Part shown: in pieces, positions 2,792-17,603 of the stretch
How the letters are laid out: each line of letters opens with the position of its first letter
Numbering within the stretch: position 1 is the stretch's first letter
Virus record (IMG/VR): IMGVR_UViG_2703718840_000011
Direction: 5' to 3' (one strand)
DNA from: a virus
Lineage: Duplodnaviria > Heunggongvirae > Uroviricota > Caudoviricetes
Length of the DNA: 17,603 nt
Translations under genes and position numbers: made by a program
The notes under the pieces: model-generated
The model's database searches: none
The model's input: the letters and a program-made list of their open reading frames with translations, nothing else
Told to the model about the DNA's origin: nothing

Positions 2792-3376
2792 TTACTCCAT
2801 AACAGGGACAGCAGGCCACTCAATATCCGGTGCTACTGATGTATCAACACGGTTCAGCAACACCCGATACTTTTTCCAGGCTTCCAGCAATGAGGTTTCT
2901 TCCTCCGTTGCAATTTCCAGATCTGCAGCATCCTGAAGCGGCGCAATATGCTCACTGGCTACCTGCATCAGGTTGTTTTTTGTTTCTTCCGCCTCCCGGA
3001 TCCGGAACAGTTTTTCTGCTTCCGTATCCTTCACCCAGGCTGTGCCGTTCCACTTCTGAAACTCCCCTTCCGGCGATAACCAGGTAACATTTTCCGGTAA
3101 CGGACCGAGTTCAGAAATAAATAACTCGTCCCCTGACGCTACGTCATAAACCGTTTTACCCCGATGGTCTTCAACGAGATGCCACGATGCCTCATCACTG
3201 TTGAAAACAGCCACAAAGCCAGCAGGAATATCTGGTGGTGCAATATCGGTACTGTTTGCTGGCAGACCTGTATGAGGCGGAATATATGCGTCACCTTCAC
3301 CAATAAATTCATTAGTTCCGGCCAGCAGATTATAAATTTTTATGGTCCGTGCTTGTTCACTCATTCTGAATGCCAT
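2792..3376 (-). CDS. tfa: Tail fiber assembly protein (Tfa family, lambdoid type)
   Basis: 194-aa [57 protein letters not shown]... closely matches Tfa proteins of E. coli lambdoid prophages as I recall them. Start overlaps the stop of the upstream stf-type ORF (TAATG). Confidence 0.85.
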
Positions 3377-4455
3377 TATGCAAGCCTCACAATATAGTTA
3401 AATGCGATGTTTTTGACGGTGTTTTCCGCGTTACCCGCAGCGTTAACGGTGATGGTGTGTCCATGTGAACCAATCGCAACGGAGTGCGTATGCGCACCAA
3501 TACCTACAGTATGTGCATGTGCGCCAGAACTTGCTGCAGTACCAGACAGCGAGTGGGTATGAGCACCTGCTGACTGTGTCTGAATACGTTGATAATACGA
3601 TCTATAGGAAGAAGTCTCCGGGCTTACTTGATACTGTGAATTCTGGACATAAGTGAACCCACCGCCATCATAAAATGCTAACGCAGAACCGCCGCCTCCT
3701 GGCCAACGAATACCATTACCATGAGTATGAACACCGGCAGACCCCGTAGAGCCACTCAGACTGTGCGTATGCGCCCCGGTGTTATTCGTGGATTTAGTGC
3801 CGTAATCAAACGACGATGTGGTTTTCGTCCCTAAATCCGTACTGGATGCGCTGGCGCTGTGGGTGTGCGATTTAATGCCGTCCTGTTCCTGAGACAATAC
3901 GGCCCGGCCACTGGCGGGTTTGCCCTTGATTGTCCAGCCGCGCATATCTGGAATAACACCTGAAGGATAGGCAATAGCCAGTTTCGGATATGCTGCCTTA
4001 TCAAACGTCTGCCCCTGCATGATTGCATAACCTGCAGGTGGTGTATCTGATGGCCACGGCAGCGGAACACCTGGCGGAAACGCTTCAATATTTGCCGAGC
4101 CGTCAAATTTTACGCCGTTAATTGTCCTTGCAGTTTGCAATTTGGTTGCTGTGCTTGCATTACCCGATAAAGATCCAGTGATACCACCACTCGCGTTTAA
4201 TTTAGTTGCAATTGTAACATTGCCAGTATGGTTACTAATTATAAACGGCCTTAAGCTATTGTGCGTACCAAGACTGTTAAACTCATAACGGTATTTCACG
4301 TTAATCCCGTTCAGATCATCACTACCGGGAACGTTCGTCGAGGCATGGAGATACCCCGCGCTCAGCGTGGACTGATGTTCTGCTGCACTCGCTGGCGTAG
4401 CAGCGGCGACCTGCCAGACTACTGCGGACAAAATAACAGCACATAATTTACGCAT
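3376..4455 (-). CDS. Chimeric ORF: Lom-type signal peptide and N-terminus (~60 aa) fused in frame to the C-terminal part of a side tail fiber (Stf-type) protein
   Basis: N-terminus [59 protein letters not shown] is lambda Lom-like (signal peptide plus first beta strands). The rest is tail-fiber-like ([13 protein letters not shown], repeated HxH motifs, C-terminal [11 protein letters not shown]). Junction near 4270-4285. GAGG RBS upstream of the ATG. Confidence 0.7.
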
Positions 4456-4477
4456 AATTACCTCTCGCTTTTCTGCA

Positions 4478-4504
4478 ATAAAAAAGGCGCCATTTCTGGC
4501 GCCC
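4478..4504 (-). terminator. Rho-independent terminator between J remnant and lom' (tJ-like)
   Basis: On the minus strand: GGCGCC-AGAAAT-GGCGCC hairpin followed by TTTTTTATTGC, located between the J' stop and the lom' RBS. Confidence 0.55.
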
Positions 4505-4522
4505 GTATCTGGGTTATAAAAT

Positions 4523-5660
4523 TCAGCTAATCGTGATGCCTGCAGTGGCTTTCTTCATCACCACAACCAGCAAATCGCTGATACTTGCTGTGGGATACCA
4601 GTTATTTACCAGCCATGCTGACACCGAAAACTCCAGTGTCATGTGACCGTGACCGGCAGGCATATCAATAACACCACTGTAAATCAGCGTATTATCCAGC
4701 GCGGTACGGTTATAAATTTCAGCACCGTTTTTCCGTACTATCAGGCGGCATAACGAATAAATATCGTTATTCTCCCGCTCATGTTTAGCGCCGCTGAATG
4801 CCACCGCCGGAATAACAATCTGCCGGTCAAACGGCTGATCGTCATAAACCCTGACGGTGATGGTCCCTGATGGCCACCGTTCCGGTGCACGGGAGTCCCG
4901 GGGGAAAGCTTTGCCCACTGTTTTAACGAGATCGCCTTCAATCTGGTTGGCGGACAATTTTCCCAGAACCCGACAGTTCTCGTTAATCGTGACGTTGTTG
5001 AGCGTCCCGGAGTTCGCATTCACGTTACCGCTGATATCGGCATTTTTCGCCGTCAGCCGCCCGTCCGGTGTCAGGGAAAATGCCGGAGGATTACCGCCGC
5101 TGGTAATGGTCGGAGCCGTCAGGCGTTTCAGGAACACGTCGTTCATGAATATCTGATCGCCCTGACCAACAAACATCGGCTTTGTGTTGCCATTCGCAGG
5201 ATTAATCATCGCAATCCGGTCAGCAGCCAGAAGCACCTGACTCTGCATACCTGCTGGCGTATTCTCAATACCGGCTCCGATACCCGCAATATAAAGGCGT
5301 CCGTCCTTCATCTGCTGCAGTTTCACGGCCCACATGCTGTTCAGGTTATTATTTGTATCAACCTGAACTTTCTGTATCTGCTGGATTGCCGCACTCTGGT
5401 CTTCCAGTTTTTTATTGACGGTCTGCGTGATTTCATTGCTGACATTCGTAATGGACGTCCTGATTTCAGCCAGGTCCGGCGCAAGCTGACCGTTATCAAT
5501 CTGCGTCCACAACTCCTGGGCCAGATGTGTTTTCCCGATTTCTCCTTTGAAAAAATCCAGGTAACCTTCCGCATCATCGCTCGCCCGACCGACAGCCTCC
5601 ACGAATGCCGATTTGCCAACGGTGTTCACACTGCGAACGTAAAAATAATAATCATGGCCC
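4523..5660 (-). pseudogene. C-terminal ~380-aa fragment of J-type host specificity (central tail fiber) protein; N-terminal two-thirds deleted
   Basis: Translation from ...[39 protein letters not shown]... through [30 protein letters not shown] to the C-terminus matches the C-terminal region of lambda J as I recall it. The first ~34 codons of the track ORF (starting at 5758) are out-of-frame read-through of rusA sequence. Full J proteins are about 1100 aa. Confidence 0.7.
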
Positions 5661-5891
5661 GGTTTGATATTGATACTGGCGGCTATCCGGAGGAAACAAC
5701 ACGATCTCCACTGAAGCAGGTGCCGACGTTGGTTTCGGCAGGCGACGTAACTGCTCAACTATTGCTGCGCACGCCGCGCTCTGGAATTTGCGCCCCGCTG
5801 CGCTTATCAGACTCTTACCAGCAAACGCCCCTTTGTTGGGGTGTCGCCAGTACGTGTTCACGCTGGGCGGAAAAGGCAGGATCAGCTTCAT
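5652..5891 (-). pseudogene. rusA: RusA-family Holliday junction resolvase, N-terminal fragment (truncated at the deletion junction with J)
   Basis: MKLILPFPPSVNTYWRH... matches the RusA N-terminal LPxPPSxN motif. The ORF ends after 79 aa with non-homologous residues (YQYQTGP), whereas RusA is about 120 aa. GAGAGGGG RBS and ATGA overlap with the upstream gene are intact. Confidence 0.55.
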
Positions 5892-6214
5892 ACTTTCAGG
5901 CCCCTCTCATGTAACCAGTGGGCTGCACGCAGCCTGGCGTTTTCCTCACCGGCAAGCAGTGCGCGGATAATCCCGACCGCCTCGCTGTCGTCGTCCTTCA
6001 CAGCGGTATGAAGCGTTATCCCCCGTGCCACGCCACGCTTTATCGTGATGACGCCTTTTTTCTCCAGTGCGCGAAGATGCTCCACCGCTGCATTCACCGA
6101 ACGGTATCCCAGCATGGTTGCCACCTCCTGATTGGTTGGCGGAAAGCCACGCTCTTTCTGGTAAGAAATCAGCATATCCAGCACCTGCTGCTGGCATTGA
6201 GTTAACGTCGTCAT
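5888..6214 (-). CDS. Small winged-helix DNA-binding protein resembling the LexA N-terminal DNA-binding domain (no S24 peptidase domain)
   Basis: 108 aa; QQQVLDMLISYQKERGFPPTNQEVATMLGYRSVNAAVEHLRALEKKGVITIKRGVARGITL parallels the LexA DNA-binding domain (QQEVFDLI...[36 protein letters not shown]). ATGA overlaps at both ends and a GGAG RBS. Confidence 0.55.
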   Translation of the reverse strand: MTTLTQCQQQVLDMLISYQKERGFPPTNQEVATMLGYRSVNAAVEHLRALEKKGVITIKRGVARGITLHTAVKDDDSEAVGIIRALLAGEENARLRAAHWLHERGLKV

Positions 6215-6864
6215 GCCGCCATCTCCCTGACCAGTTTTTCCGCCTGCTGGCGAACCTGCACCAGAAAGGCTTCACCACATGCCTCAAGTTCATCGCGCCC
6301 GATGTAGCTGATTGCCGGTCCCTTCCAGGTCTTGTCGAAAACAGCAATAGCACCAGCGAAGAAAGCGCCTGTCGGCACCTGCTTCTCATCCTTCGGGATA
6401 AACCAGGCAGGCAGTTCAAAACCAATACGCCCGCGAATAAAAGCAATATGGTCCGCATCTTCCGGCCACCACACTTCGCTGGTGGCAGCTTTGATCAGGA
6501 AAACATAGCGCCCGCCCTTATCACGCATGGCACTGGCATGTTTCATGATGTAACGCATGCCGGTGATGTATTGTCCCTCATGCTGACTGGCGCGGCTGTA
6601 TGGGGGATTACCAAAGGCAGCACCTTTAAGCTCCGCAAGACGTTCTGACCAGTCATGCGCCAGCGCGTTATCTTCCGCCGTGTAATACGCGGCACATTTG
6701 GCGTTATCACCGTCAGTAAACAGATCCAGAACAAACGGGCCAAACAGGGTGTTAATTCCCCAGAAAATGTTGTCCGGCGTGCGCCACTGATCGCCCACTT
6801 CCTTCAGTTCATGGGCTGGTTTGTTCCGCAGTTCCACCAGCGCCTGGCAATATTTATTACTCAT
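6211..6864 (-). CDS. Phage-type DNA N6-adenine methyltransferase (Dam family)
   Basis: MSNKYCQALVELRNKPAHELKEVGDQWRTPDNIFWGINTLFGPFVLDLFTDGDNAKCAAYYTAEDNALAHDW... with catalytic NPPY motif (GNPPYS). I place the start at the internal ATG (6864, residue 12 of the track ORF), which overlaps the O-like stop by 1 nt and is preceded by a GGGGG RBS. Confidence 0.8.
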   Translation of the reverse strand: MSNKYCQALVELRNKPAHELKEVGDQWRTPDNIFWGINTLFGPFVLDLFTDGDNAKCAAYYTAEDNALAHDWSERLAELKGAAFGNPPYSRASQHEGQYITGMRYIMKHASAMRDKGGRYVFLIKAATSEVWWPEDADHIAFIRGRIGFELPAWFIPKDEKQVPTGAFFAGAIAVFDKTWKGPAISYIGRDELEACGEAFLVQVRQQAEKLVREMAA

Positions 6865-7817
6865 TAAGCCCCCACGTAATTCCCTGACAGATACCACTCT
6901 TCACCCGATGCAGCGCGCTTGCTGCTTTTCCGTAAACACCGCTCTTCGCGTTTTTCGGTGTACGTGCTGACGGACGGCGATAAGCGCAGGGAAAGCTCAT
7001 CCCATTTTTCCCGCAACTTCGACGGGCTGAGCACGTTACGGCACCAGAACGGATCGCGGCTGACGCGGCTGTACATCTCGCAGATTTGTTTGTGAGTACG
7101 ACCATCCTGCACACACATCAGGCGAATTTCGTTTGCCCAGGCTGTCCAGTTCGGTTCTTTGGGACGAACCACCTCGCCGTCACATTCGGCGGCTTGCTCG
7201 TACAGGGCGATGATTTTTTTCCAGAGCCACTGTGCGCAGGTCAAATCATCCTGCGTTCCCCACTGGCGCTTTTTAGGGCTGAATACAACCGCATCAGGAT
7301 GGCGAGTTAAAAAATCCTGTTCATCCGTCTGCGTGTCCGGTTGCGAAGCGTCCGGACGAGAAGGTTTTTTATCTGACGGATCATGTTTTGATTTTACTGA
7401 CGGATCCCCGCCAGATTCTGACGGGTGAAAACCCGCTTTTTTGCCAGATTTCGACGCATCAAATTTTGACGGGTCAGATTTTGATGCGTCAGATTTTGAC
7501 GGGTCAGAATCTGACAGTTGAGAAAATGCCGCTGCCTGAAGCTTCGCAACGTTAAGCTGATAAACATTCGACGCATTGCGGTTACCCTGGCGACGCGCCT
7601 TACGCGTTAACCAGCCTTCTGCTTCCAGCCGTGCGATAGCCGTTCTGACGGTACTCATCCCCGCGCCAATCTGACGGGCAATGGTTTCAATTGATGGCCA
7701 GCACACACCTTCGTCATTACTGAAATCAGCCAGGCGGGCCATAATTGCCACGCTGGATAATTTCATGCCTGATGCAGCGCAACCATCCCATACATAGCCG
7801 GTTAATTTAGTGCTCAT
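6864..7817 (-). CDS. Replication initiator, lambda O-like (N-terminal wHTH origin-binding domain, repetitive acidic linker, C-terminal domain)
   Basis: 317 aa; N-terminus MSTKLTGYVWDGCAASGMKLSSVAIMARLADFSNDEGVCWPSIETIARQIGAGMSTVRTAIARLEAEGWL is typical of phage replication O-type HTH domains. An internal repetitive linker (SDSDPSKSDASKSDPSKFDASKSGKK) is encoded by an iteron array. GAGG RBS 6 nt upstream. Confidence 0.7.
   Translation of the reverse strand: MSTKLTGYVWDGCAASGMKLSSVAIMARLADFSNDEGVCWPSIETIARQIGAGMSTVRTAIARLEAEGWLTRKARRQGNRNASNVYQLNVAKLQAAAFSQLSDSDPSKSDASKSDPSKFDASKSGKKAGFHPSESGGDPSVKSKHDPSDKKPSRPDASQPDTQTDEQDFLTRHPDAVVFSPKKRQWGTQDDLTCAQWLWKKIIALYEQAAECDGEVVRPKEPNWTAWANEIRLMCVQDGRTHKQICEMYSRVSRDPFWCRNVLSPSKLREKWDELSLRLSPSVSTYTEKREERCLRKSSKRAASGEEWYLSGNYVGA
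7369..7517. repeat. Iteron array (candidate phage origin of replication) inside the O-like gene
   Basis: Seen directly: about 8 copies of a ~15-bp unit with core (A/C)AGATTTTGACGGGTC. The last five (about 7445-7517) are strictly tandem: cagatttcgacgcat / caaattttgacgggt / cagattttgatgcgt / cagattttgacgggt / cagaatctgacag. Parallels ori-lambda, which lies within O. Confidence 0.55.
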
Positions 7818-7826
7818 GACCGACCT

Positions 7827-8165
7827 CTACTTCCCTGAATTTACGACGAAACTGTTCGAGCGGGCTGAAGCACTCATGCTCATAGCCTTCGCGGAGGTAG
7901 ATAACCCGTTGTGTTTCCGGCTCCCAACGAATGACTCTGACGGGCACTCCGTAGTGATCTTTGAACCAGCGGTTAACTTGTCGCAAAGGACTGTCTCCTT
8001 CTGCCGGTTGAAATCACCCACAGCCCACTCTGCAAAGCTGTGGGTTACAATTTCCCTGTCACCTGGTACATTTACTGCATAGCAATACTCCACCTTCGCT
8101 TTTCCACCCGGTACAGGAAGTGCAATCAGTTGCGAGCGACGGTAGTGTGTTGTTAAACTGTTCAT
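7827..8165 (-). CDS. Hypothetical protein (112 aa) between cII-like and O-like genes
   Basis: Start overlaps the cII-like stop (ATGA) and the stop lies 10 nt before the O-like start. The C-terminal third is low-complexity, so the true extent is uncertain. No family recognised. Confidence 0.4.
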
Positions 8166-8776
8166 GCGTTAGTTTCTCCACAACCAGAAGCAATCGACGC
8201 CACGACGCCCGGAGCTGCACACTCGCGGGCGTCATTACTTTCTGAAATGCAAAAAATTTTGTAGACAAGTGCTGCATGCTCCTGCAGCTTCGAAATTGAG
8301 AGATACAGCTCGTCGTTAATTGCTGTCTTCTCATGCGGTTCCACTACACCGTCTTCGATTGCTGAACGAATCTGTTTTGAATAACTGCCGATCTGTTCAA
8401 TGACTTCCAGCAGACGCTGGTTAATATCGGCGTTGTCCACATCCTCGACGTCAGGAAGAGACACAAAGACGCCATTTGCAGACTGCGCCACAGCATCAGC
8501 AATGAAGTGAGTTCCACCAGCACGTTGCAAAATCATTGCCCATCCCAGCGGGAAAATCTGATCGCCATCAGCACGAAGGCGGTTAAATAATGCGTTCTCT
8601 GTTACATCCAGCCAGTCAGCTGCTTCAGCGTAACCACCCGGCAACTTTGCGATAGTTTTTCTGACAGCTTTCACGTACCACTCAGGCTGTTTTTCTACTT
8701 TCCAGTGATGCTTACCCACGGTTAGCCTCATCGTTCTGTGGTTTCTGTTAATCGATTTATCCATTAGATTTTTCAT
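8162..8776 (-). CDS. CII-like regulatory protein (phage 186 CII / YdaT-like); start uncertain
   Basis: Sits immediately downstream of cro. The segment [25 protein letters not shown] resembles the 186-CII-type motif (LRNKLNPEQPHQFTPPELWLL). The track ORF begins at a GTG (8833) inside cro; in-frame ATGs at about 8776, 8764 and 8731 are more plausible, none with a strong SD. Confidence 0.45.
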
Positions 8777-8957
8777 AAAGCTCAGGTTTAAATGGCAACC
8801 GTCCGCAAGTTCTATATGCAGCTTCTGCTGCACGTCCTTTTGGAATTAACTGGCCCGGACGGTTTCGCCACTGATAAACGGCTTCAGTTGTTATGCCGAA
8901 AAAAGCAGCAACTTTCTCAATACTGCCGAAGTAGCTTTCGATATCGTCAGTTGTCAT
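8757..8957 (-). CDS. Cro-like small HTH regulator (YdaS-type)
   Basis: 66 aa, divergent from the cI-like repressor with a ~97-bp operator-containing intergenic region; GGAGGG RBS. HTH-like segment VAAFFGITTEAVYQWRN. Confidence 0.65.
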   Translation of the reverse strand: MTTDDIESYFGSIEKVAAFFGITTEAVYQWRNRPGQLIPKGRAAEAAYRTCGRLPFKPELYEKSNG

Positions 8958-9054
8958 ACGCCCTCCAAACTAAGTTTTATTAGATGCTAATTACAAATCT
9001 ATCTTTGGTCAATAAAAACTAAGATTACTTAGCAATTCAAGAAATGGTGCTCCT
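8958..9054. promoter_or_regulatory. Immunity switch region (OR-like): divergent promoters with palindromic operator candidates
   Basis: Palindromes TTAGATGCTAA (about 8980-8990) and CTAAGATTACTTAG (about 9019-9032); ACTAAG repeated at about 8969 and 9018. Candidate minus-strand promoter TTGACC-17 bp-TAGCAT whose -10 overlaps the first palindrome. Confidence 0.4.
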
Positions 9055-9681
9055 ATGGAAACGGTTGGTCAGCGTATAAAAGCTCTGAGAAGAGTTACCA
9101 GAACGTCCCAGAAAGAATTGGGTAAATTTTGTGGAGTAAGCGACGTTGCTGTGGGGTACTGGGAGAAAGACATCAATACCCCTGGTGGGGAGGCACTTTC
9201 GAAATTAGCGAAGTTCTTCAATACGTCAATAGATTACATTCTTTATGGTGCTGAGTTTGAAGGCAAACTCGTCACAAACATGCGCAGAGTTCCTGTAATA
9301 TCGTGGGTTCAGGCTGGGCAGTTTACTGAGTGCAGGGCAGCAGAAGTGTTTAGTGAAGTGGACAAGTGGGTAGATACATCATTAAAGATTGGTGATAACT
9401 CATTTGCATTAGAGGTTAAAGGTGACTCCATGACTAACCCTAATGGCCTCCCAACAATACCAGAAGGCGCAACAGTGATTGTAGATCCAGATGCAGAACC
9501 TCGTCATGGAAAAATAGTCATCGCTCGACTTGATGGAACAAACGAAGCTACAGTAAAAAAATTAGTCATCGATGGCCCTCAAAAGTTTTTAGTGCCATTA
9601 AATCCTCGGTATCCCAACATCCCTATCAATGGTAATTGCCTTATCATTGGTGTAGTCAAAGGAGTTCAATACGAACTCTAA
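9055..9681 (+). CDS. cI-like prophage repressor (N-terminal XRE-type HTH, C-terminal S24 LexA-like autopeptidase)
   Basis: 208 aa; HTH QKELGKFCGVSDVAVGYWEKD; C-terminal domain with Ser nucleophile in GDSMTNP and Lys in ATVKKLVIDG, the hallmark of RecA-stimulated self-cleaving repressors. Confidence 0.85.
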   Translation: METVGQRIKALRRVTRTSQKELGKFCGVSDVAVGYWEKDINTPGGEALSKLAKFFNTSIDYILYGAEFEGKLVTNMRRVPVISWVQAGQFTECRAAEVFSEVDKWVDTSLKIGDNSFALEVKGDSMTNPNGLPTIPEGATVIVDPDAEPRHGKIVIARLDGTNEATVKKLVIDGPQKFLVPLNPRYPNIPINGNCLIIGVVKGVQYEL

Positions 9682-9695
9682 GACCTCTCTTCTCT

Positions 9696-9763
9696 AACTA
9701 AGGCACCGAACTAAGAAAAGTTTGGTGTTTTCTCTTGCCATAATAACTAAGTTAAGTTAGATT
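9696..9763 (+). promoter_or_regulatory. PL-like early-left promoter/operator candidate immediately downstream of cI
   Basis: Three AACTAAG copies (about 9696, 9709, 9745), sharing the ACTAAG core seen in the cI-cro intergenic region. Candidate promoter TTGCCA (about 9735-9740), 17-bp spacer containing AACTAAG, TAGATT (about 9758-9763). Confidence 0.35.
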
Positions 9764-9865
9764 TTATGTCAAAGATAACGAACAGGCAGGACGCCCACGA
9801 AGTAGCCGCCGGTGGCGTATGAATGACCGGATGATTCGTTAAATACTATGTGTAAGAGAGCGCAA

Positions 9866-10068
9866 ATGAACCGTTATTTCACATGCTCGTTTTGTGGCGC
9901 AAACGAGCTGCAGGCAAAAAAATCATCGCCAAAGGCGGAAAAGATGAAGTTGCTATCTGCTCTGAGTGCGTAGTCTTGTGTGTCGGAGCATTAATCAATA
10001 TCAGCACAACTATTCAGTTCACACCAAATGAGAATGCGCCTTTAGATGCGCGGAAATCTGGAGGTTAA
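9866..10068 (+). pseudogene. Small ClpX-N-terminal-type C4 zinc-finger protein ORF, split by a -1 frame change at an A7 run (slippery heptamer A AAA AAA)
   Basis: ATG at about 9866 opens MNRYFTCSFCGANELQAKK..., which stops after 35 codons. The track ORF 9883-10068 in the -1 frame continues ...KKIIAKGGKDEVAICSECVVLCVGAL. Joined, they give CSFCG...ICSECVVLC, similar to the ClpX zinc-binding domain (YCSFCGKSQHEV...YICDECVDLC). The frames meet in the A7 run at about 9916-9922. Confidence 0.5.
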
Positions 10069-10076
10069 AGAACAAA

Positions 10077-10352
10077 ATGAAAGTCCAGATTTTAAACAAT
10101 AGTGGTGAAGTCGTTTGGTCATACGACATAGCCGCTCCTGTAGATCAGAGCGGCGATAGCTGGACCAATGGGAAACATCAGATTATGGCTGGAGTTGTAT
10201 TCTCTTTACACCGTGCTTTGGAACAGGCTGAAGTATTTCCATCAGACCCTGAATGGAAATGGCCTTTTTCTATTTGTCCAAATTCGGAGAGCACATTTCA
10301 GAAAATTGGTCAGAAAGTCGCACTCGAAGAGCATCAGCCAACTGTTTTCTGA
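10077..10352 (+). CDS. Hypothetical protein (91 aa)
   Basis: GGAGG about 10 nt upstream of the ATG and immediately after the stop of the zinc-finger ORF, which is operon-like. No family recognised. The 3' end overlaps a convergent ORF. Confidence 0.45.
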   Translation: MKVQILNNSGEVVWSYDIAAPVDQSGDSWTNGKHQIMAGVVFSLHRALEQAEVFPSDPEWKWPFSICPNSESTFQKIGQKVALEEHQPTVF

Positions 10353-10515
10353 TTTTTTCAGGTAACTCGTCGGCATCGCAGAAACAACAACGCTCGATCA
10401 TGTTGAAAGCCGATTCGTAGAACTGTTTCTGCTGAGTGTCGCTGAGACAGGAAAAGAGCGACGTTACGATGATTTTATTAATTGCATTATCAAGTTCTTT
10501 TTCATCAAAAGTCAT
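10270..10515 (-). CDS. Hypothetical protein (81 aa), convergent to the early-left operon
   Basis: Plausible amino-acid composition; AAGGAAAA RBS-like sequence 5-6 nt upstream of the ATG. Its 3' end overlaps the + strand 91-aa ORF by about 83 bp, so one of the two is probably shorter or not real. Confidence 0.35.
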   Translation of the reverse strand: MTFDEKELDNAINKIIVTSLFSCLSDTQQKQFYESAFNMIERCCFCDADELPEKIRKQLADALRVRLSDQFSEMCSPNLDK

Positions 10516-10769
10516 TTGATTTTCCTTTTATGTATACGGGCTTAAAAGGATACCACCGAGCCTGAAGTGGTGAAAAGACAGGCACATAACAGCTAAGTAT
10601 TTTCAACCAGAGAGAATCCTTAGCGTTGTGGTGAATGCGGCTCAGCGCACGCGGGTTAAGGTTGAGGCTGACAGTCGACCTTCTGTGGATACCCACCCGT
10701 CTGGTGTGCAACCTTCGCCAGGCACCGGGAGGCACCCGGCACCACAACTTTATGCTGTGTGTAGTCCTG

Positions 10770-10815
10770 GCGGTACCAGTTTGTACCCTTGCTTCCGGCT
10801 GGTACCGCTCTTTTT
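10770..10815 (+). terminator. Rho-independent terminator inside the early-left transcription unit
   Basis: GCGGTACCAG - 19-nt loop - CTGGTACCGC followed by TCTTTTTAC, a 10-bp perfect stem with a T-run on the + strand. Confidence 0.5.
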
Positions 10816-10904
10816 ACAAAACAGAGAAGAGCATCACCGGACGACGGGCTCATAACCCAATCCATCCGGGCGGCTGCCACCGCAGGTGTTCTTCTCTGTT
10901 TTGT
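10816..10904 (+). other. Large stem-loop: perfect 15-bp inverted repeat (ACAAAACAGAGAAGA ... TCTTCTCTGTTTTGT) separated by ~59 nt of GC-rich sequence, in the leader of the yfdP-like gene
   Basis: Seen directly, immediately after the terminator T-run and about 50 nt before the next gene's RBS. The stem can extend by a few pairs and the interior contains sub-hairpins. Confidence 0.45.
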
Positions 10905-10952
10905 GGAGAAACCAACCGACCTTGCAGGGTCGATATGATGAGGAGCAGCAAA

Positions 10953-11315
10953 ATGGCTAGCGAACGCAGTACTGATGTGCAGGCATTTATCGGGGAGCTG
11001 GACGGCGGCGTATTTGAAACCAAAATCGGCGCAGTTCTCAGTGAAGTCGCTTCCGGTGTGATGAACACGAAAACCAAAGGTAAGGTCTCGCTCAACCTGG
11101 AAATCGAACCGTTTGATGAGAACCGTGTGAAAATAAAACATAAACTCTCATATGTTCGCCCGACTAACCGCGGGAAAATTTCCGAAGAAGACACCACCGA
11201 AACACCGATGTATGTCAATCGCGGTGGTCGCCTGACTATTCTGCAGGAAGACCAGGGACAATTACTGACTCTTGCCGGTGAACCTGACGGAAAACTCCGC
11301 GCAGCAGGTCATTAA
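10953..11315 (+). CDS. Hypothetical protein, 120 aa (YfdP-like by position and length)
   Basis: Start chosen at the internal ATG preceded by GAGGAG with 7-nt spacing. The long track ORF from 10635 is an artefact of GC-rich structured sequence upstream. Length and position match what I recall for yfdP of CPS-53; the sequence identity is not confirmed. Confidence 0.55.
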   Translation: MASERSTDVQAFIGELDGGVFETKIGAVLSEVASGVMNTKTKGKVSLNLEIEPFDENRVKIKHKLSYVRPTNRGKISEEDTTETPMYVNRGGRLTILQEDQGQLLTLAGEPDGKLRAAGH

Positions 11316-13221: not shown

Positions 13222-13433
13222 GCGTGATAAAAACTCATACAGGAATTGTTATTACCCGAAACGGTCCGCAGGTAAAAAAACTGCACCAGACAAAGCGGAT
13301 GTGGGTCGTCGGAGAAAACGAGTTTTACCACAAAGAAACCGGACGCCGCCACTTTGCAGAAAATACGCGCCGCCGACTGCTCCTGGACAGCATCAGGCCA
13401 ATTAAACAGGTAGCAACCAGAGAACAAAATTAA
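13218..13433 (+). CDS. Hypothetical small basic protein (71 aa) in the yfdT position
   Basis: ATGA overlap with the upstream gene. K/R-rich. Shorter than the ~100 aa I recall for yfdT, so no symbol assigned. Confidence 0.5.
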   Translation: MSVIKTHTGIVITRNGPQVKKLHQTKRMWVVGENEFYHKETGRRHFAENTRRRLLLDSIRPIKQVATREQN

Positions 13434-13494
13434 TTATCAGGACTGAAATTTGATATTACTGCCCGTGTGCAGCGGGTTAAGTGGAGAAACAGCC

Positions 13495-13704
13495 ATGGCA
13501 AAACTAATGAAAGCGAGCCAATGGGGACGCCGTGAATTCTCTAATGGCTCAATTCCTGACAACCGAACGATAAAACGCTGGGTCGAGAACGGTCTGCTCA
13601 TGGGGCGTATAGTGGACGGTTCTGTTTTTGTCTGCGAAACAGAAAAATGGGGAGTCGACTCAATGGTTAGTCAAGCTGTTCGCAAGTTAATAAATGAGGG
13701 ATGA
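13495..13704 (+). CDS. xis: Excisionase (lambda Xis-type)
   Basis: KASQWGRREFSNGSIPDNRTIKRWVENGLLMGRIVDGSVFVCETEKWGV parallels lambda Xis (LQEWNARQRRPRSLETVRRWVRECRIFPP...GREYLFHESAVKV). Start chosen at the ATG with GGAG 8 nt upstream. Its stop overlaps the integrase start. Confidence 0.6.
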   Translation: MAKLMKASQWGRREFSNGSIPDNRTIKRWVENGLLMGRIVDGSVFVCETEKWGVDSMVSQAVRKLINEG

Positions 13705-14885
13705 CCATGGCGGCAAGGCCACGTAAAAAAGAATACAGACATCTTCCTGATTATCTGGTTTTTGATAAAGATCGAGGTGTTTATAAATTCACACTTATTA
13801 CCGGAAAAAAGAAAAATATAGGTAAGGATCGGGCAATAGCCGTTGCAATCGCCAGAGAGTACAACCTGAGGATGCGATCAGAATTATACCCATCAGTGGA
13901 TAATCTTATTAGAGAATCTGGCGGGGTCACCGGAGAAGCAAAACCATTTGCTGAACATGTCGATCACATAATGGCCAGAATTATCGAAGACGAACGACCT
14001 TCCCAGAGTACCTTAGATGACTGGAAAAATGACGCTCTACGCGTAAAAGCATTTTTCGTAAATGTTCCGGCATGCGATATCGAACTTGAACACGTTAATG
14101 CCTACATCAACAAATATCATGCCAGCGCATCCGCAAATGTGCAGAACAGAAAGGTCAGCTTTCTTAAAAAGTTGTTCTCTTATGCGGTCGATGAATCACT
14201 AATGCAGGATAACCCGGCCATCAGAAAAAAAATGCGTAGGACTGATGAGAAGAAAAGACGGCGCCTGTCACTCGAGCATTTTATAGCTATCAGGCAGGCC
14301 GCTGCACCATGGTTAAGAACAGCAATGGACCTAGCATTGCAGACTACACATGCACGACTCGAAGTATCGCGAATCCGTTACTCAATTCGCGAACCTAAAG
14401 ACGGTTTATGTGGATGTGTTTGGTTCGAACAACCACAAAATGGCATATATGGTACACTATACATCCATAGGCAAAAAGTACAAAAAAAGGAGGCATCACA
14501 TGTTGCAATACCAATTGGTGAAGAATTGAAACGGATAATTGACAATAGCCGTGACAATGTGGCCAGTCCCTTTGTCGTTCATAGAATCCCAGAACGGCAT
14601 GTTAAACGCAGTAAAGAGGTTTCGCACCCAACTCAAGTTGCACCAGATTATTTGAGTCGGTCATTCTCTTCCGTGCGAGACAAACTCGGACTATGCAATC
14701 ATCTAGCAATGGAACAAAGACCTACATTCCATGAAATAAGAGCTTTGGCAGCTCACCTATTTGATAAACAAGGGATTGATCCGCAGGGACGAATGGCACA
14801 TAGCGATGCGAAATCTACTAAAATTTATACTAAAAATCATATAGATTGGATTGTTGTCCCTCATGGAGAAATTAAAACCGGTTAG
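13701..14885 (+). CDS. int: Tyrosine-type site-specific integrase (lambda Int family)
   Basis: 394 aa. C-terminal catalytic region with H-x-x-R (TFHEIRALAAHLF) and the tyrosine motif (MAHSDAKSTKIYTKNH). Arm-binding-like N-terminus. Xis immediately upstream. Confidence 0.9.
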   Translation: MTMAARPRKKEYRHLPDYLVFDKDRGVYKFTLITGKKKNIGKDRAIAVAIAREYNLRMRSELYPSVDNLIRESGGVTGEAKPFAEHVDHIMARIIEDERPSQSTLDDWKNDALRVKAFFVNVPACDIELEHVNAYINKYHASASANVQNRKVSFLKKLFSYAVDESLMQDNPAIRKKMRRTDEKKRRRLSLEHFIAIRQAAAPWLRTAMDLALQTTHARLEVSRIRYSIREPKDGLCGCVWFEQPQNGIYGTLYIHRQKVQKKEASHVAIPIGEELKRIIDNSRDNVASPFVVHRIPERHVKRSKEVSHPTQVAPDYLSRSFSSVRDKLGLCNHLAMEQRPTFHEIRALAAHLFDKQGIDPQGRMAHSDAKSTKIYTKNHIDWIVVPHGEIKTG

Positions 14886-15022
14886 TTATTAAATTCTCCA
14901 CTTTATTTTGACTGACAATAACGGTTGCTAAGGCATAGAGTAAAGCTTAATTTAAAAGGCAGTTCTATGCCCATTTACCATAACTCCTCCCTTGTCCAGA
15001 AAGCAATATTTATTAATAAAAT

Positions 15023-15985
15023 TTATTTACCCTTATTATACTCTTCAGTAATCTTATTCATGGATGATATATATTTATCCAGCCCACCATAGTTGGCTAT
15101 CATTCGAAATGAATTACGGTACTCTGCCATTTTCACATCATGATTAGTAATTCCACACCAGCCACAAACTTTATTTTCCATGTTTAAAGGCTCATAACAT
15201 TTTTTACATTGCCTTGATGCAGGTATTATATTGCCATTAATAAATTGGTGTGATTTGAGATTTTGAGATAAAAGAAATGGTGTAGTTGTTGTTTTTCCTA
15301 TTACCATTTCGAAATATCTACATTTAGCCTTTTTAGCTAAAGATTGAATTTTCTGCTTTAATAAATCATTTGATTTGTGCCCAACTATAACTCCAGTTAT
15401 ACAATTAATCGGTACCGGAAGGAGCATAAGATTGTCATTCAGTTTAGTAAGTGCTTTCTCATTAATTATTACGCGACGTTCCTGCTCATAACTCCAGCAA
15501 GTTTGTTTTGTCAAATATGCGGCTGTCATTATACAGGATTGTAGCCAGTAGATATAACGAGGTTTACAGATATGAAATGCTCTCGCCAGAATGTCTTCAA
15601 TACCTGTATCTGGAGAATCTTTATATTCAACATCTGCTATTGAACTATGATCCTGGAAGCCGATTTCATCCAAATACTTTTTAAACTTCTCCTCATTAAT
15701 CTCTATTACAAAACCAGAAGAATTACCTGCATAATGTGCCCACATAGGTGGTATCACAGGGCTTTTCGTAAAACAAGTTGCTGGTTGTTTTGTAACCATG
15801 CCAATCATTTCATTGTAAAATGCTAACTCATCAGAACCGCGATTAAAATCAATAGTAAGGAAAAACTCATAGGGATCATTATATTCATGTAAATGAGAGA
15901 ATTTTATTCCTATATGTGTTTCATCCATCATCAATTTATCAATTATATCCGCTCCCATAAACTTATACAAATTGGTCATATACAA
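15023..15985 (-). CDS. DUF2971-family protein with C-terminal CxxC...CxxC zinc ribbon (320 aa)
   Basis: N-terminal NLYKFMGADIIDKL...IKFSHLHEYNDPYEF matches the DUF2971 hallmark (LYKY...FS.P..FNDPFE). C-terminus CKKCYEPLNMENKVCGWCG. AAGGAG RBS 7 nt upstream. Strongly AT-rich gene and flanks. Confidence 0.75.
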   Translation of the reverse strand: MYMTNLYKFMGADIIDKLMMDETHIGIKFSHLHEYNDPYEFFLTIDFNRGSDELAFYNEMIGMVTKQPATCFTKSPVIPPMWAHYAGNSSGFVIEINEEKFKKYLDEIGFQDHSSIADVEYKDSPDTGIEDILARAFHICKPRYIYWLQSCIMTAAYLTKQTCWSYEQERRVIINEKALTKLNDNLMLLPVPINCITGVIVGHKSNDLLKQKIQSLAKKAKCRYFEMVIGKTTTTPFLLSQNLKSHQFINGNIIPASRQCKKCYEPLNMENKVCGWCGITNHDVKMAEYRNSFRMIANYGGLDKYISSMNKITEEYNKGK

Positions 15986-16065
15986 CTCCTTTTTTATAAA
16001 ATAACATTTTAAATCATATGATTATGGAGGCACAAAATCCAGTAATTAGTTTTCAAGCCGGTTGT

Positions 16066-16428
16066 GATGTAGTTCGAGGACAAACTGAAACGTATTATTG
16101 ATAACAGTCGCGATAACGTTGCCTGCCCGTATATCGTTCACCGTATACCGAGCGTAATAACAAACGCAGTAAAGAGGTATCCGCACCTGCCTATCTTAGC
16201 CATACTTTTCATTGCCCCGTGATTCGTTAGGCTTGTGTAATAATTTGACGATGGAGCTGCGCCCCCACATTCCACAAAATACGCGCACTAGCTGCATTTT
16301 GTTTGATAAACAGGGAGTAGACCACAAGGGCTCATAGCCCACAGCGACGCGAAATCAACGAAAATTTATACGCGGAACCATATGATTGGGTAATGCTTCC
16401 GCACGGTGAAATTAAATACAATGCATAA
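16066..16428 (+). pseudogene. Decayed 3' fragment of a second, related tyrosine integrase gene
   Basis: Seen directly: nucleotide similarity to the 3' end of the intact integrase (e.g. identical AAACGCAGTAAAGAGGT; ...GCGATGCGAAATC.ACTAAAATTTATAC...; ...CACGGTGAAATTAAA). Translation gives KLKRIIDNSRDNVA.P.IVHRIP, then frameshifts and stops, then ...AHSDAKSTKIYTRNH...PHGEIK. It lacks the 5' two-thirds of the gene. Confidence 0.65.
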
Positions 16429-16430
16429 TA

Positions 16431-16458
16431 AAATTGGCCTCAAATGAGGCCAATTTTG
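16431..16458. terminator. Bidirectional rho-independent terminator (perfect palindrome AATTGGCCTCA-AA-TGAGGCCAATT flanked by A- and T-runs)
   Basis: Seen directly: AAAATTGGCCTCAAATGAGGCCAATTTTGG. Lies between the integrase remnant (+) and the convergent minus-strand operon. Confidence 0.6.
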
Positions 16459-16462
16459 GGGA

Positions 16463-16846
16463 TTAGGACGCTTTAGACTTGGTCATATTAGCGCAACGCT
16501 GGATTAATTTCTCTGCAGTCTTAATCGCGGTGCTTGATTGGGTTGGCGTAATAGTGTCGTTAAGTCTGTAATCACAAACTATTCTCTGATCCTTAAGCGA
16601 TTGAAGAGCATACCCCAAACCAATTAAGTCTCTTTTTTCAAAAGGTTCGTTACCCTTCCAAGCATCGTTAACAAGATAGTCAATGAGGCCTTGGTGACTT
16701 TCTTTCGGCCCCATGGTCAAACACGGAAGTACGTGGTGATAAGCACCATAATACGCACGTGCGACAGCGTTTCTGTAACCAATTTCGTCGTTACGCTTTT
16801 CACAATCTTTTGCGAAAGCGATAAAATCGGAACTATTAACTGGCAC
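16463..16846 (-). CDS. Hypothetical small protein (~127 aa from a GTG start); possible Rx6H HEPN-like motif (speculative)
   Basis: The track ORF starts at ATG 16897, which would overlap the upstream gene by 62 nt. An in-frame GTG at about 16846 is preceded by a perfect GGAGG 7 nt upstream (inside the 3' end of the upstream gene). The motif RAYYGAYHH is noted. AT-rich. Confidence 0.5.
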   Translation of the reverse strand: MPVNSSDFIAFAKDCEKRNDEIGYRNAVARAYYGAYHHVLPCLTMGPKESHQGLIDYLVNDAWKGNEPFEKRDLIGLGYALQSLKDQRIVCDYRLNDTITPTQSSTAIKTAEKLIQRCANMTKSKAS

Positions 16847-17603
16847 GCGCAGGTTCCTCCAAACGCCCTTCAAACCATACGCTGAAGGGTTTTCCAATCA
16901 AACTTTCATTTTCTGCAAGAGAAAATGCTATATCCAAGTTCATATCAGAGAGAACATCAGAATCTTCAGTATTAACTGCCATGACATATGATGACGTACG
17001 CTCTTCAGGGATAGAGCAGAAAGACATAGCAACAGGACTAACTTTATGGTCAGCCATGATATCCACTATGCGGTTTGCAATATCCTGTAGTTCTTCATCA
17101 GTAATTCCAGTTGCACTTTTGAAGGTCGTGGATTGGGCCAGTGCTGTGGCTGCGAGGTGCTTAACCAATTCAGCCTCCTTTTCATCTACCATACTTATCA
17201 ATCTCTCAGCATAGTAGAGCGCTTTGTCAATACGCCCCAAGAACAAGTTAGCTTCCCATGCATGGGACAGCATCGTAGGGGAGTTATAACGTTCAACTAA
17301 TCGATTTACCACTTGTTCAACTTCACGGAAGCTGCCGTAATCGTTGAGATAAACTACATAATTTTGAGCAATGATCAGGTTGTTATGCTTCAATGCTTCT
17401 TCAAAGAATGCAACTGCAGTATCTTTACGCCCAAAAGCACCATTAGCCAACGCTTTGAGATAGTCCTCAGATGCGCTGTCGCGCAACTTTTCTATATCTC
17501 TGATATAACGAAAATATTGCATTTCGGATATCGTATTCCGAGCCGCAAGAATATCGATTAATTCACTGCTGATTTCGTTCGCTTTTAGCGCCGGCTGTGG
17601 CAT
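16836..17603 (-). CDS. Hypothetical alpha-helical (TPR-like) protein, 255 aa; 5' end at the window edge, possibly partial
   Basis: Long ORF whose ATG coincides with the last bases of the window. Helical repeat-like composition (YLKALANGAFGRKDTAVAFFEEALKHNNLIIAQNYVVYL...). Its 3' end contains the RBS for the downstream gene. Confidence 0.55.
   Translation of the reverse strand: MPQPALKANEISSELIDILAARNTISEMQYFRYIRDIEKLRDSASEDYLKALANGAFGRKDTAVAFFEEALKHNNLIIAQNYVVYLNDYGSFREVEQVVNRLVERYNSPTMLSHAWEANLFLGRIDKALYYAERLISMVDEKEAELVKHLAATALAQSTTFKSATGITDEELQDIANRIVDIMADHKVSPVAMSFCSIPEERTSSYVMAVNTEDSDVLSDMNLDIAFSLAENESLIGKPFSVWFEGRLEEPARAS

Follow-up and report, generated by a model that had tools for sequence, protein, structure and literature searches.

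Illegitimate recombination between related lambdoid phages is said to create novel joints, sometimes with partial genes, and in the same body of ideas (the Hendrix/Juhala model) extra transcription units with a promoter and a terminator of their own, the morons, reportedly gather near the genome ends by accretion. In Streptococcus thermophilus, the TP-778/TP-778L system combines a complete integrase gene with the truncated integrase gene of an older phage remnant, the two being direct repeats at the same attachment locus (PMC3952083). That arrangement was taken as evidence that the site had been occupied in succession, and aberrant excision results when the complete gene recombines with the truncated one (PMC3952083). 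According to a report on phage–ICE tandems, successive integration at one tRNA/att site gives composites that are mobile as a unit (PMC13651849). In phages P2 and P4, hotspots hold variable cargo between conserved flanks (PMC9122126, PMC13586616). In P2 and in PICIs, the interval between int and att is a hotspot for defence, though a minor one, and small intergenic pseudogenes of core genes are common in such hotspots, where they are read as remnants of intense recombination (PMC13586616).

The DNA described below is a stretch of 17,603 nucleotides (IMG/VR record IMGVR_UViG_2703718840_000011), which we call the window. It is an Escherichia coli lambdoid prophage at the tRNA-Pro gene proL, between yejM and yejO/narP. 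The part at 13400-17603 is 99.9-100% identical to sequence in 52 complete E. coli chromosomes; a megablast search of the GenBank phage collection with the same interval gave no match. In strain 4224 (ST131), a lambdoid prophage of ~46 kb has this region at its right end. The left attachment site (attL) is the intact tRNA-Pro gene at the left end, next to yejM, and the right one (attR) is a direct repeat of ~55 bp of the tRNA 3' end, 3.1 kb past the integrase (int) stop codon (24641-24695 of locus L001, equivalent to window ~18040-18094, which is ~440 bp past the window end). The yejO pseudogene and then narP lie on the far side of attR. From the int stop codon to attR, the order is a DUF2971 gene (minus strand), the integrase remnant that is our subject (plus strand) and two overlapping genes for proteins of 144 and 255 aa (minus strand).

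The window's copy of this prophage looks heavily deleted and is probably defective. Only the C-terminal 411 aa of the tail-tip protein J are encoded (4523-5758, minus strand), Dam methylase and replication genes (6211-6897, minus strand) lie ~450 bp from the truncated J gene, and the head, lysis and Q regions of strain 4224 are missing, along with most of its tail region. An open reading frame of 359 aa (3376-4455, minus strand) joins an Ail/Lom segment (residues 1-63) to tail collar and tail-fibre repeats, and appears to be a Lom–tail fibre fusion made by deletion. A full-length match to the Rfam family IS009 (RF02111; 221 bits, E=1.5e-54) is found at 2835-3033 (minus strand), in or over the tail-fibre assembly gene at 2792-3376.

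The resident integrase gene (13701-14885, plus strand) is intact. Its product is a tyrosine integrase of 394 aa ending in ...PHGEIKTG*, with Pfam matches to Arm-DNA-bind_1 (a lambda-type arm-binding N-terminus) and Phage_integrase and further matches to PHROG integrase families. The gene is abutted by a hypothetical CDS of 69 aa in RefSeq (13495-13704, plus strand), which tblastn finds collinear with int at every locus of the two types compared below, X and Y. We call it xis-like from its position; its sole Pfam match is a weak one (HTH).

The remnant (16060-16428, plus strand) is homologous to the last ~122 codons of this gene. MAFFT and BLAST pair 16060/16083-16416/16428 with int 14513/14524-14876/14885, and 65-66% of the ~355-362 aligned nt are identical. 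Local alignment gives a score of 85, where 200 shuffled versions of the remnant score 11.7±1.4 and at most 21; exact matches extend over up to 17 nt (AAACGCAGTAAAGAGGT, starting at 16162 and at 14604). The first-pass annotation, which had reported similarity to the 3' third of int with 17-nt identical runs, above chance, was right in this. The two int copies are direct repeats on the same strand, 1.54 kb apart.

Decay of the reading frame is extensive. Alignment with intact relatives shows five deletions and one insertion of 1 nt each in the remnant, plus a deletion of 15 nt; at least six of its indels shift the frame, and an in-frame TAG stands at 16068-16070, just within its left edge. The three-frame translation changes frame six times (0→2→1→2→1→0→2), reading FEDKLKRIIDNSRDNVACPYIVHRIP / ERNNKRSKEVS..APAYLSHTF / RDSLGLCNNLTMELRP and then TFHKIRALAA / LFDKQGVDHKG / AHSDAKSTKIYTRNH / YDWVMLPHGEIKYNA. 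The frame ends in ...PHGEIKYNA, where the intact gene has ...PHGEIKTG*, with the stop codon at 16426-16428. Frameshifts, an internal stop and the ...HGEIK C-terminus had all been noticed in the first reading of the sequence, and all are present. The remnant corresponds to int codons ~273-394 and so retains homology to the catalytic part of a tyrosine recombinase, including the HxxR box and the catalytic-Tyr region (TFHKIRALAA and AHSDAKSTKIY after frame stitching), and the stitched peptide of 121 aa matches members of the int family with E=1e-42 to 1e-45. There is no uninterrupted reading frame through arm-binding, core-binding and catalytic domains. With only ~122 codons, these frameshifts, the 15-nt deletion and the in-frame TAG, the remnant is a pseudogene fragment, and RefSeq/PGAP likewise lists it among the pseudogenes ('site-specific integrase; frameshifted; incomplete; missing N-terminus'). 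Judged by its sequence, it is the decayed, non-functional 3' end of a second, different integrase gene.

Other integrase 3' fragments came to light in the same comparisons. A large protein search with the stitched remnant returned only short C-terminal int open reading frames (108-202 aa), some of them frameshift artefacts, and the family phrog_10320 (89 positions, function not assigned) matches only residues 310-379 of the resident integrase (window ~14628-14837). Fragments of int 3' ends called as separate open reading frames thus appear to be common in databases.

The identity of the second integrase follows from two related arrangements that exist intact elsewhere. Type Y has the order xis–int(…HGEIKTG)–DUF2971–P arm, and type X has the order xis–int(…HGEIKYNA)–hairpin–144-aa–255-aa–P arm–tRNA-Pro core. 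With the 255-aa protein as query, species-representative genomes yielded type X in Pseudocitrobacter faecalis (L015) and Enterobacter wuhouensis (L016), where an intact int of 392-398 aa is followed by convergent homologues of the 144/255-aa genes and then by the P arm and the tRNA-Pro core. Closer type X loci came from IMG/VR (L032, L033, L034 and L037), with cargo proteins 92-94% identical in amino acids and intact integrases of 395 aa. The flanks of L015, L016, L033, L034, L036 and L038 have no match to the E. coli yejO–narP flank, so these loci come from other genera. Window 16083-17603 (plus strand) aligns with L032, L033, L034 and L037 as a single collinear HSP that runs from the int 3' end through the 144-aa and 255-aa genes (and on towards the P arm and core) at 82-87% nucleotide identity; the same stretch is collinear with the Pseudocitrobacter locus at 67.5%, and also with L016. 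Just 3' of the remnant's stop codon, identity is 88-90% with type X integrase loci vs 34-41% with type Y. The remnant itself is 70-71% identical to the closest intact type X genes vs 65-66% to the resident int. It is thus the 3' third of a type X int and, as the first reading had it, part of a second integrase.

On the other side, window 13461-15994 is collinear with the xis–int–DUF2971 modules of IMG/VR contigs L022, L023 and L024 at 77-79% nucleotide identity, and the resident integrase is 88-89% identical in amino acids to those of L022 and L023, which have DUF2971 only. In L023, DUF2971 lies directly between int and the P arm, which begins ~95 nt upstream of the DUF2971 start; this single contig, ending within the P arm, is the source for the P arm of type Y.

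The junction between the two types can be placed at 16056-16066. The DUF2971 upstream and ribosome-binding region (15980-16058, minus strand) derives from type Y and aligns with L023 from the ATG to ~75-80 nt upstream. Similarity to type Y ends at ~16055-16060, and similarity to int starts at ~16060-16066. Past this point, L023 enters the attP P arm whereas the window enters the remnant. On the Y side, the join falls near the P arm's outer edge. The window is best described as a type Y module joined to the final third of an int of type X, with the X cargo and att site behind it. The earlier proposal that the DUF2971 gene and its promoter occupy the place of the missing 5' part of the remnant was correct in that the DNA at the junction ends with these elements, but what was joined is the whole xis–int–DUF2971 module, not cargo alone.

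The type X parent has no exact match among the loci compared. Third positions differ by 0.54 between the remnant and type X integrases vs 0.13 in the adjacent cargo genes, and even the closest type X relatives share only ~70% identity with the remnant body; thus, the parental int allele is an unsampled one, and from the alignments the type X parent must have been mosaic ~45 nt before the int stop codon. A search of 5.8 billion proteins with the stitched peptide gave 27 short or frameshifted open reading frames of the same family, at ≤71% identity, and no closer parent. Searching E. coli for diverged copies gave only integrases at 68%, besides the allele described next, and no tandem Y–X intermediate was found.

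That allele, L039, is from the horse isolate E. coli T309.Ta3. It is a diverged version of the same arrangement (int–DUF2971–remnant–144 aa–255 aa–attR), and its junction is that of the window except for one base, with the same TAG; thus, the fusion was a single old event. Its remnant is nearly in-frame. Neither the six 1-nt indels nor the 15-nt deletion of the window occur there, and the single deletion that it does have, of 7 nt, is its own. Between the window and L039, the remnant has 10-14 mismatches per 100 nt plus 26 gap columns. Its body diverges by 12-13%, like the intergenic sequence at 17700-17800 (13% differences), while the DUF2971, 144-aa and 255-aa genes of the two alleles differ by 1.8-3.6% (third positions 4-8%). 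Divergence at the intergenic rate, together with freely gained indels, indicates that the remnant body is unconstrained. Second codon positions differ by 11% between the remnant and intact integrases vs 0-4% among the intact integrases themselves. Divergence from the resident int reaches 0.66 at third positions, and this strong third-position excess (0.54-0.66 over the comparisons) means that most of the divergence preceded inactivation. Conservation is confined to the last ~50 nt of the remnant and the adjacent hairpin (16429-16458); termination of the 255/144-aa operon by this hairpin is the probable reason.

In L039, an IS903B (3733-4791, equivalent to window 14830-14838) lies within the last ~16 codons of an otherwise intact int, with a 9-bp overlap resembling a target-site duplication. 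Identity between L039 and the window is 99.8% to the left of the IS903B and 95.3% to the right, a drop that points to a recombination boundary close to the 3' end of int.

The position of the remnant relative to the attachment sites was also compared. The interval from int to the P arm was searched for the core with a 25-mer, allowing ≤3-4 mismatches, and with blastn-short using the P arm plus core; these searches gave chance 8-9-mers only, and no further tRNA core or P-arm copy lies between the int stop codon and the P arm. ARAGORN, run on the window, found no tRNA near the remnant. The att-like repeats that the first-pass annotation suggested looking for are thus absent from this interval. 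The remnant has neither an att pair of its own nor an internal att between the two integrases, either of which would mark an independent tandem element. Because it lies between int and the sole attR, without an internal att, the remnant is within the element and not beside it. The possibility that two elements still stand in tandem was considered and rejected, as there is no tRNA or att fragment between the int stop codon and the P arm.

We consider it probable, at roughly 80%, that the remnant is a functionless scar left when two sister modules from the lysogeny end of lambdoid proL phages were fused. What carries this reading is the homology on both sides of the join, the survival of both parental arrangements, the junction shared by two alleles, the neutral decay, the lack of an internal att and the horizontal spread described below. 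One parent would have carried int(…KTG)–DUF2971–P arm and the other int(…KYNA)–hairpin–144-aa–255-aa–P arm–core. A single non-homologous join would then have connected Y, ~80 nt upstream of the DUF2971 start, to codon ~273 of the X int, with loss of Y's attP arm and core and of the first two thirds of the X int (and, had the two been tandem prophages, of the remainder of phage X as well). The product would have kept Y's int in working order, X's att site and both cargo sets stacked, and the orphan int fragment would have decayed neutrally from then on.

The route to this join we infer. We prefer, tentatively and at somewhat under even odds, a deletion in a tandem Y–X double lysogen at proL or capture of an X cassette that had been stranded. 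The alternative, possible but rated a little lower, is that two co-replicating phages recombined illegitimately. Deletion in a tandem lysogen and recombination between co-replicating phages are indistinguishable here. The earlier claim of tandem or successive integration therefore stands as plausible, if followed by deletion, but illegitimate recombination between phages would leave the same product.

For the capture of a stranded cassette, an example can be seen in E. coli strain J2 (NZ_CP195980.1; L014/H168). There, an IS1-associated deletion took everything leftward from inside the remnant and left the 144/255-aa cassette stranded between attR and the intact tRNA-Pro gene. With such an orphan cassette in existence, a later phage integrating beside it is a realistic route. 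In the same locus (8001-11081), an IS1 adjoins the right part of the remnant.

Could the remnant instead have been kept for a function, as part of the DUF2971 promoter or its regulation, as an insulating spacer with a terminator, as the source of an antisense RNA or as a homology handle for cargo swapping? We regard this as unlikely. Persistence through at least 12% neutral divergence in two lineages is somewhat unexpected for a pseudogene under strong deletion bias, the 3' end and hairpin are conserved, and homology breakpoints in the family cluster at the int 3' end, all of which would fit a function; the persistence leaves a little room for a spacer or regulatory role. However, the body diverges at the intergenic rate and gains indels freely. 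The remnant contains no Rfam family, no open reading frame >48 aa and no consensus promoter on the minus strand, and the homology of the DUF2971 upstream region to type Y stops before the remnant begins. As a handle, it would offer the resident int a longest identity run of 17 nt, and a run of that length is a poor substrate for RecA.

The first-pass annotation favored an older element at this chromosomal locus, whose integrase was overwritten by cargo. Taken literally, this would make the remnant a footprint bound to the locus, outside the current element, which we think very unlikely. It is true that proL has been occupied repeatedly by different prophages, and the stranded cassette in J2 makes such an origin realistic. 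The remnant, though, lies between int and the sole attR with no att of its own, and the DNA said to have replaced the rest of the older integrase is a whole xis–int–DUF2971 module. Moreover, the block from attR to xis does not behave as a fixture of the chromosome. In eight other E. coli hosts, it is 99.5-100% identical in seven and 98.2% in one, while their ccm/narP flanks show 0.6-2.5% differences and their prophage backbones vary in the immunity region, in deletions and in IS content; the same block is present in five IMG/VR viral contigs. A near-identical block beside diverged flanks indicates that it now moves with the phage. The older-element account is thus wrong for the present state, and as an account of origin it merges with the fusion reading preferred here.

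An internal duplication of the 3' end of the resident int, later diverged, would account for two direct repeats 1.54 kb apart on the same strand, but it can be rejected as barely credible, as the third-position divergence from the resident int (0.66) is that between distant family members, the remnant is nearer to type X integrases (70-71%) than to the resident one (65-66%), the KYNA* end and the type X hairpin are absent from the resident int, and collinearity with intact type X loci extends from the remnant into the cargo beyond it.

The fusion reading places the remnant in a family of elements with a common order: xis – int – [variable cargo, transcribed towards int] – attP P arm – tRNA-Pro core. 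In other E. coli prophages at proL, int has 91-93% DNA identity with that of the window, and similarity ends at about the int stop codon. In the MLI107 and GZM7 prophages, the cargo is followed by a conserved P arm of ~140 bp and the tRNA-Pro core. The space from this int family to the shared P arm and core has at least five different contents: DUF2971 alone (L023), the 144/255-aa pair (L032-34, L037, L015 and L016), both sets plus the remnant (the window and L039), a gene for 289 aa on the minus strand (MLI107, L003) and genes for 283 and 66 aa on the minus strand (GZM7, L004). Cargo at this position, between int and the P arm, is thus variable, and the suggestion of a recombination hotspot in the earlier annotation holds.

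The DUF2971 gene (15023-15979, minus strand) encodes 318 aa, with matches to Pfam PF11185 (E=1.8e-9; 39 bits, for a cut-off of 22), to the PADLOC candidate PDC-S31 (E=4e-22) and to phrog_1762. A stand-alone DUF2971 protein of similar size, Aristaios (316 aa), has been shown to be an antiphage system in Lactococcus (PMC11381338). The window protein resembles it in its DUF2971 domain, in standing alone and in size, and its gene is a candidate single-gene anti-phage defence; a defence of the Aristaios type would also show abortive infection and an ADP-ribosyltransferase-like fold. Upstream of diverged DUF2971 genes, the motif TACTnGATTTT occurs with repeated GGATTT (window 16010-16045, minus strand; L023 ~105-150; L025 ~270-320), and it may be a conserved promoter or operator element.

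To the right of the remnant, a perfect 13-bp hairpin flanked by an A-run and a T-run (16429-16458) has folding energies of -18.3 kcal/mol on the plus strand and -17.5 kcal/mol on the minus strand (z = -4.4 and -5.0, respectively). It is conserved at 88-90% directly 3' of the stop codons of intact type X int genes. The hairpin is likely a bidirectional terminator that once served int and still serves the convergent 144/255-aa operon.

The first gene beyond it (16463-16897, minus strand) encodes 144 aa, or 127 aa from the RefSeq start (16463-16846), and belongs to phrog_5176, with function not assigned; the protein has no match in Pfam, PADLOC or the PDB. Homologues have 92-93% amino-acid identity in L032-L034 and L037 and 64-76% in L015 and L016, and are convergent with int throughout. 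The 255-aa gene (16836-17603, minus strand; phrog_17809) overlaps it, the two forming one operon. Its product has weak TPR signals, under Pfam cut-offs, and homologues at 93-94% amino-acid identity in L032-L034, 66% in Pseudocitrobacter and 48% in Enterobacter, with the P arm and tRNA-Pro core next to them. For both proteins, and for the cargo of L003 and L004, sequence searches of Pfam, PADLOC, PHROGs and the PDB gave nothing usable.

Residues ~42-57 of the 144-aa protein (RNAVARAYYGAYHH) resemble the HEPN-type R-x(4-6)-H motif. Together, this HEPN-like protein and its TPR-like partner of 255 aa may form a two-gene toxin/defence module, a suggestion from reading the sequence, for which no library match was found. 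Window 17129-17160, within the 255-aa gene, is an exact 32-nt match to a CRISPR spacer in the type I-E array at the ygcE–queE locus of E. coli strain NY1601 (NZ_CM135959.1), and the adjacent window triplet, CTT, is an AAG PAM on the opposite strand. This exact match means that E. coli has acquired immunity against DNA with the 255-aa gene.

These observations can be joined in a wider reading, set in the proL-integrating lambdoid phages of the Enterobacteriaceae, that we offer as speculative and doubtful. The int 3' end and the P arm would be handles of a cassette, allowing accessory or defence genes to be swapped or, via tandem lysogeny plus deletion or via a cassette stranded at the tRNA gene, stacked; the remnant would be a datable marker of stacking, and the 144/255-aa pair an undescribed, CRISPR-targeted defence.

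By itself, the finding matters little. The remnant is a real but ordinary scar of phage mosaicism, a neutral pseudogene already marked as such in RefSeq. Its value is as a clean worked example, in which both parental types and a less decayed allele of the same junction still exist, so that one can reconstruct how a temperate phage gained two accessory or defence units behind one int, with the scar decaying at the neutral rate. The interval between int and attP in proL lambdoid prophages is also a cargo site worth mining, with DUF2971/PDC-S31 and the 144/255-aa pair as candidates.

Of the known systems, TP-778 is the closest described case, since it too has a complete and a truncated int as direct repeats. 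In TP-778, however, the truncated gene lies outside the prophage and replaces attR, whereas the remnant in the window lies inside, with a normal attR beyond it. With 66% identity and a maximum run of 17 nt, the two copies in the window are also unfit for efficient homologous recombination. The accreted phage–ICE tandems keep the internal att and usually both integrases, whereas the window has lost the former along with most of the second element. The P2/P4 hotspots are alike in their cargo between conserved flanks, in the int–att site and in their core-gene pseudogenes. The window differs in that it is from a lambdoid phage at proL, in that two cargo sets have been stacked by non-homologous fusion and not swapped, and in that the scar is a recognizable third of a flanking core gene. 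From the Hendrix/Juhala model there is no essential difference: the window is an instance of it in which both parental configurations can still be found.
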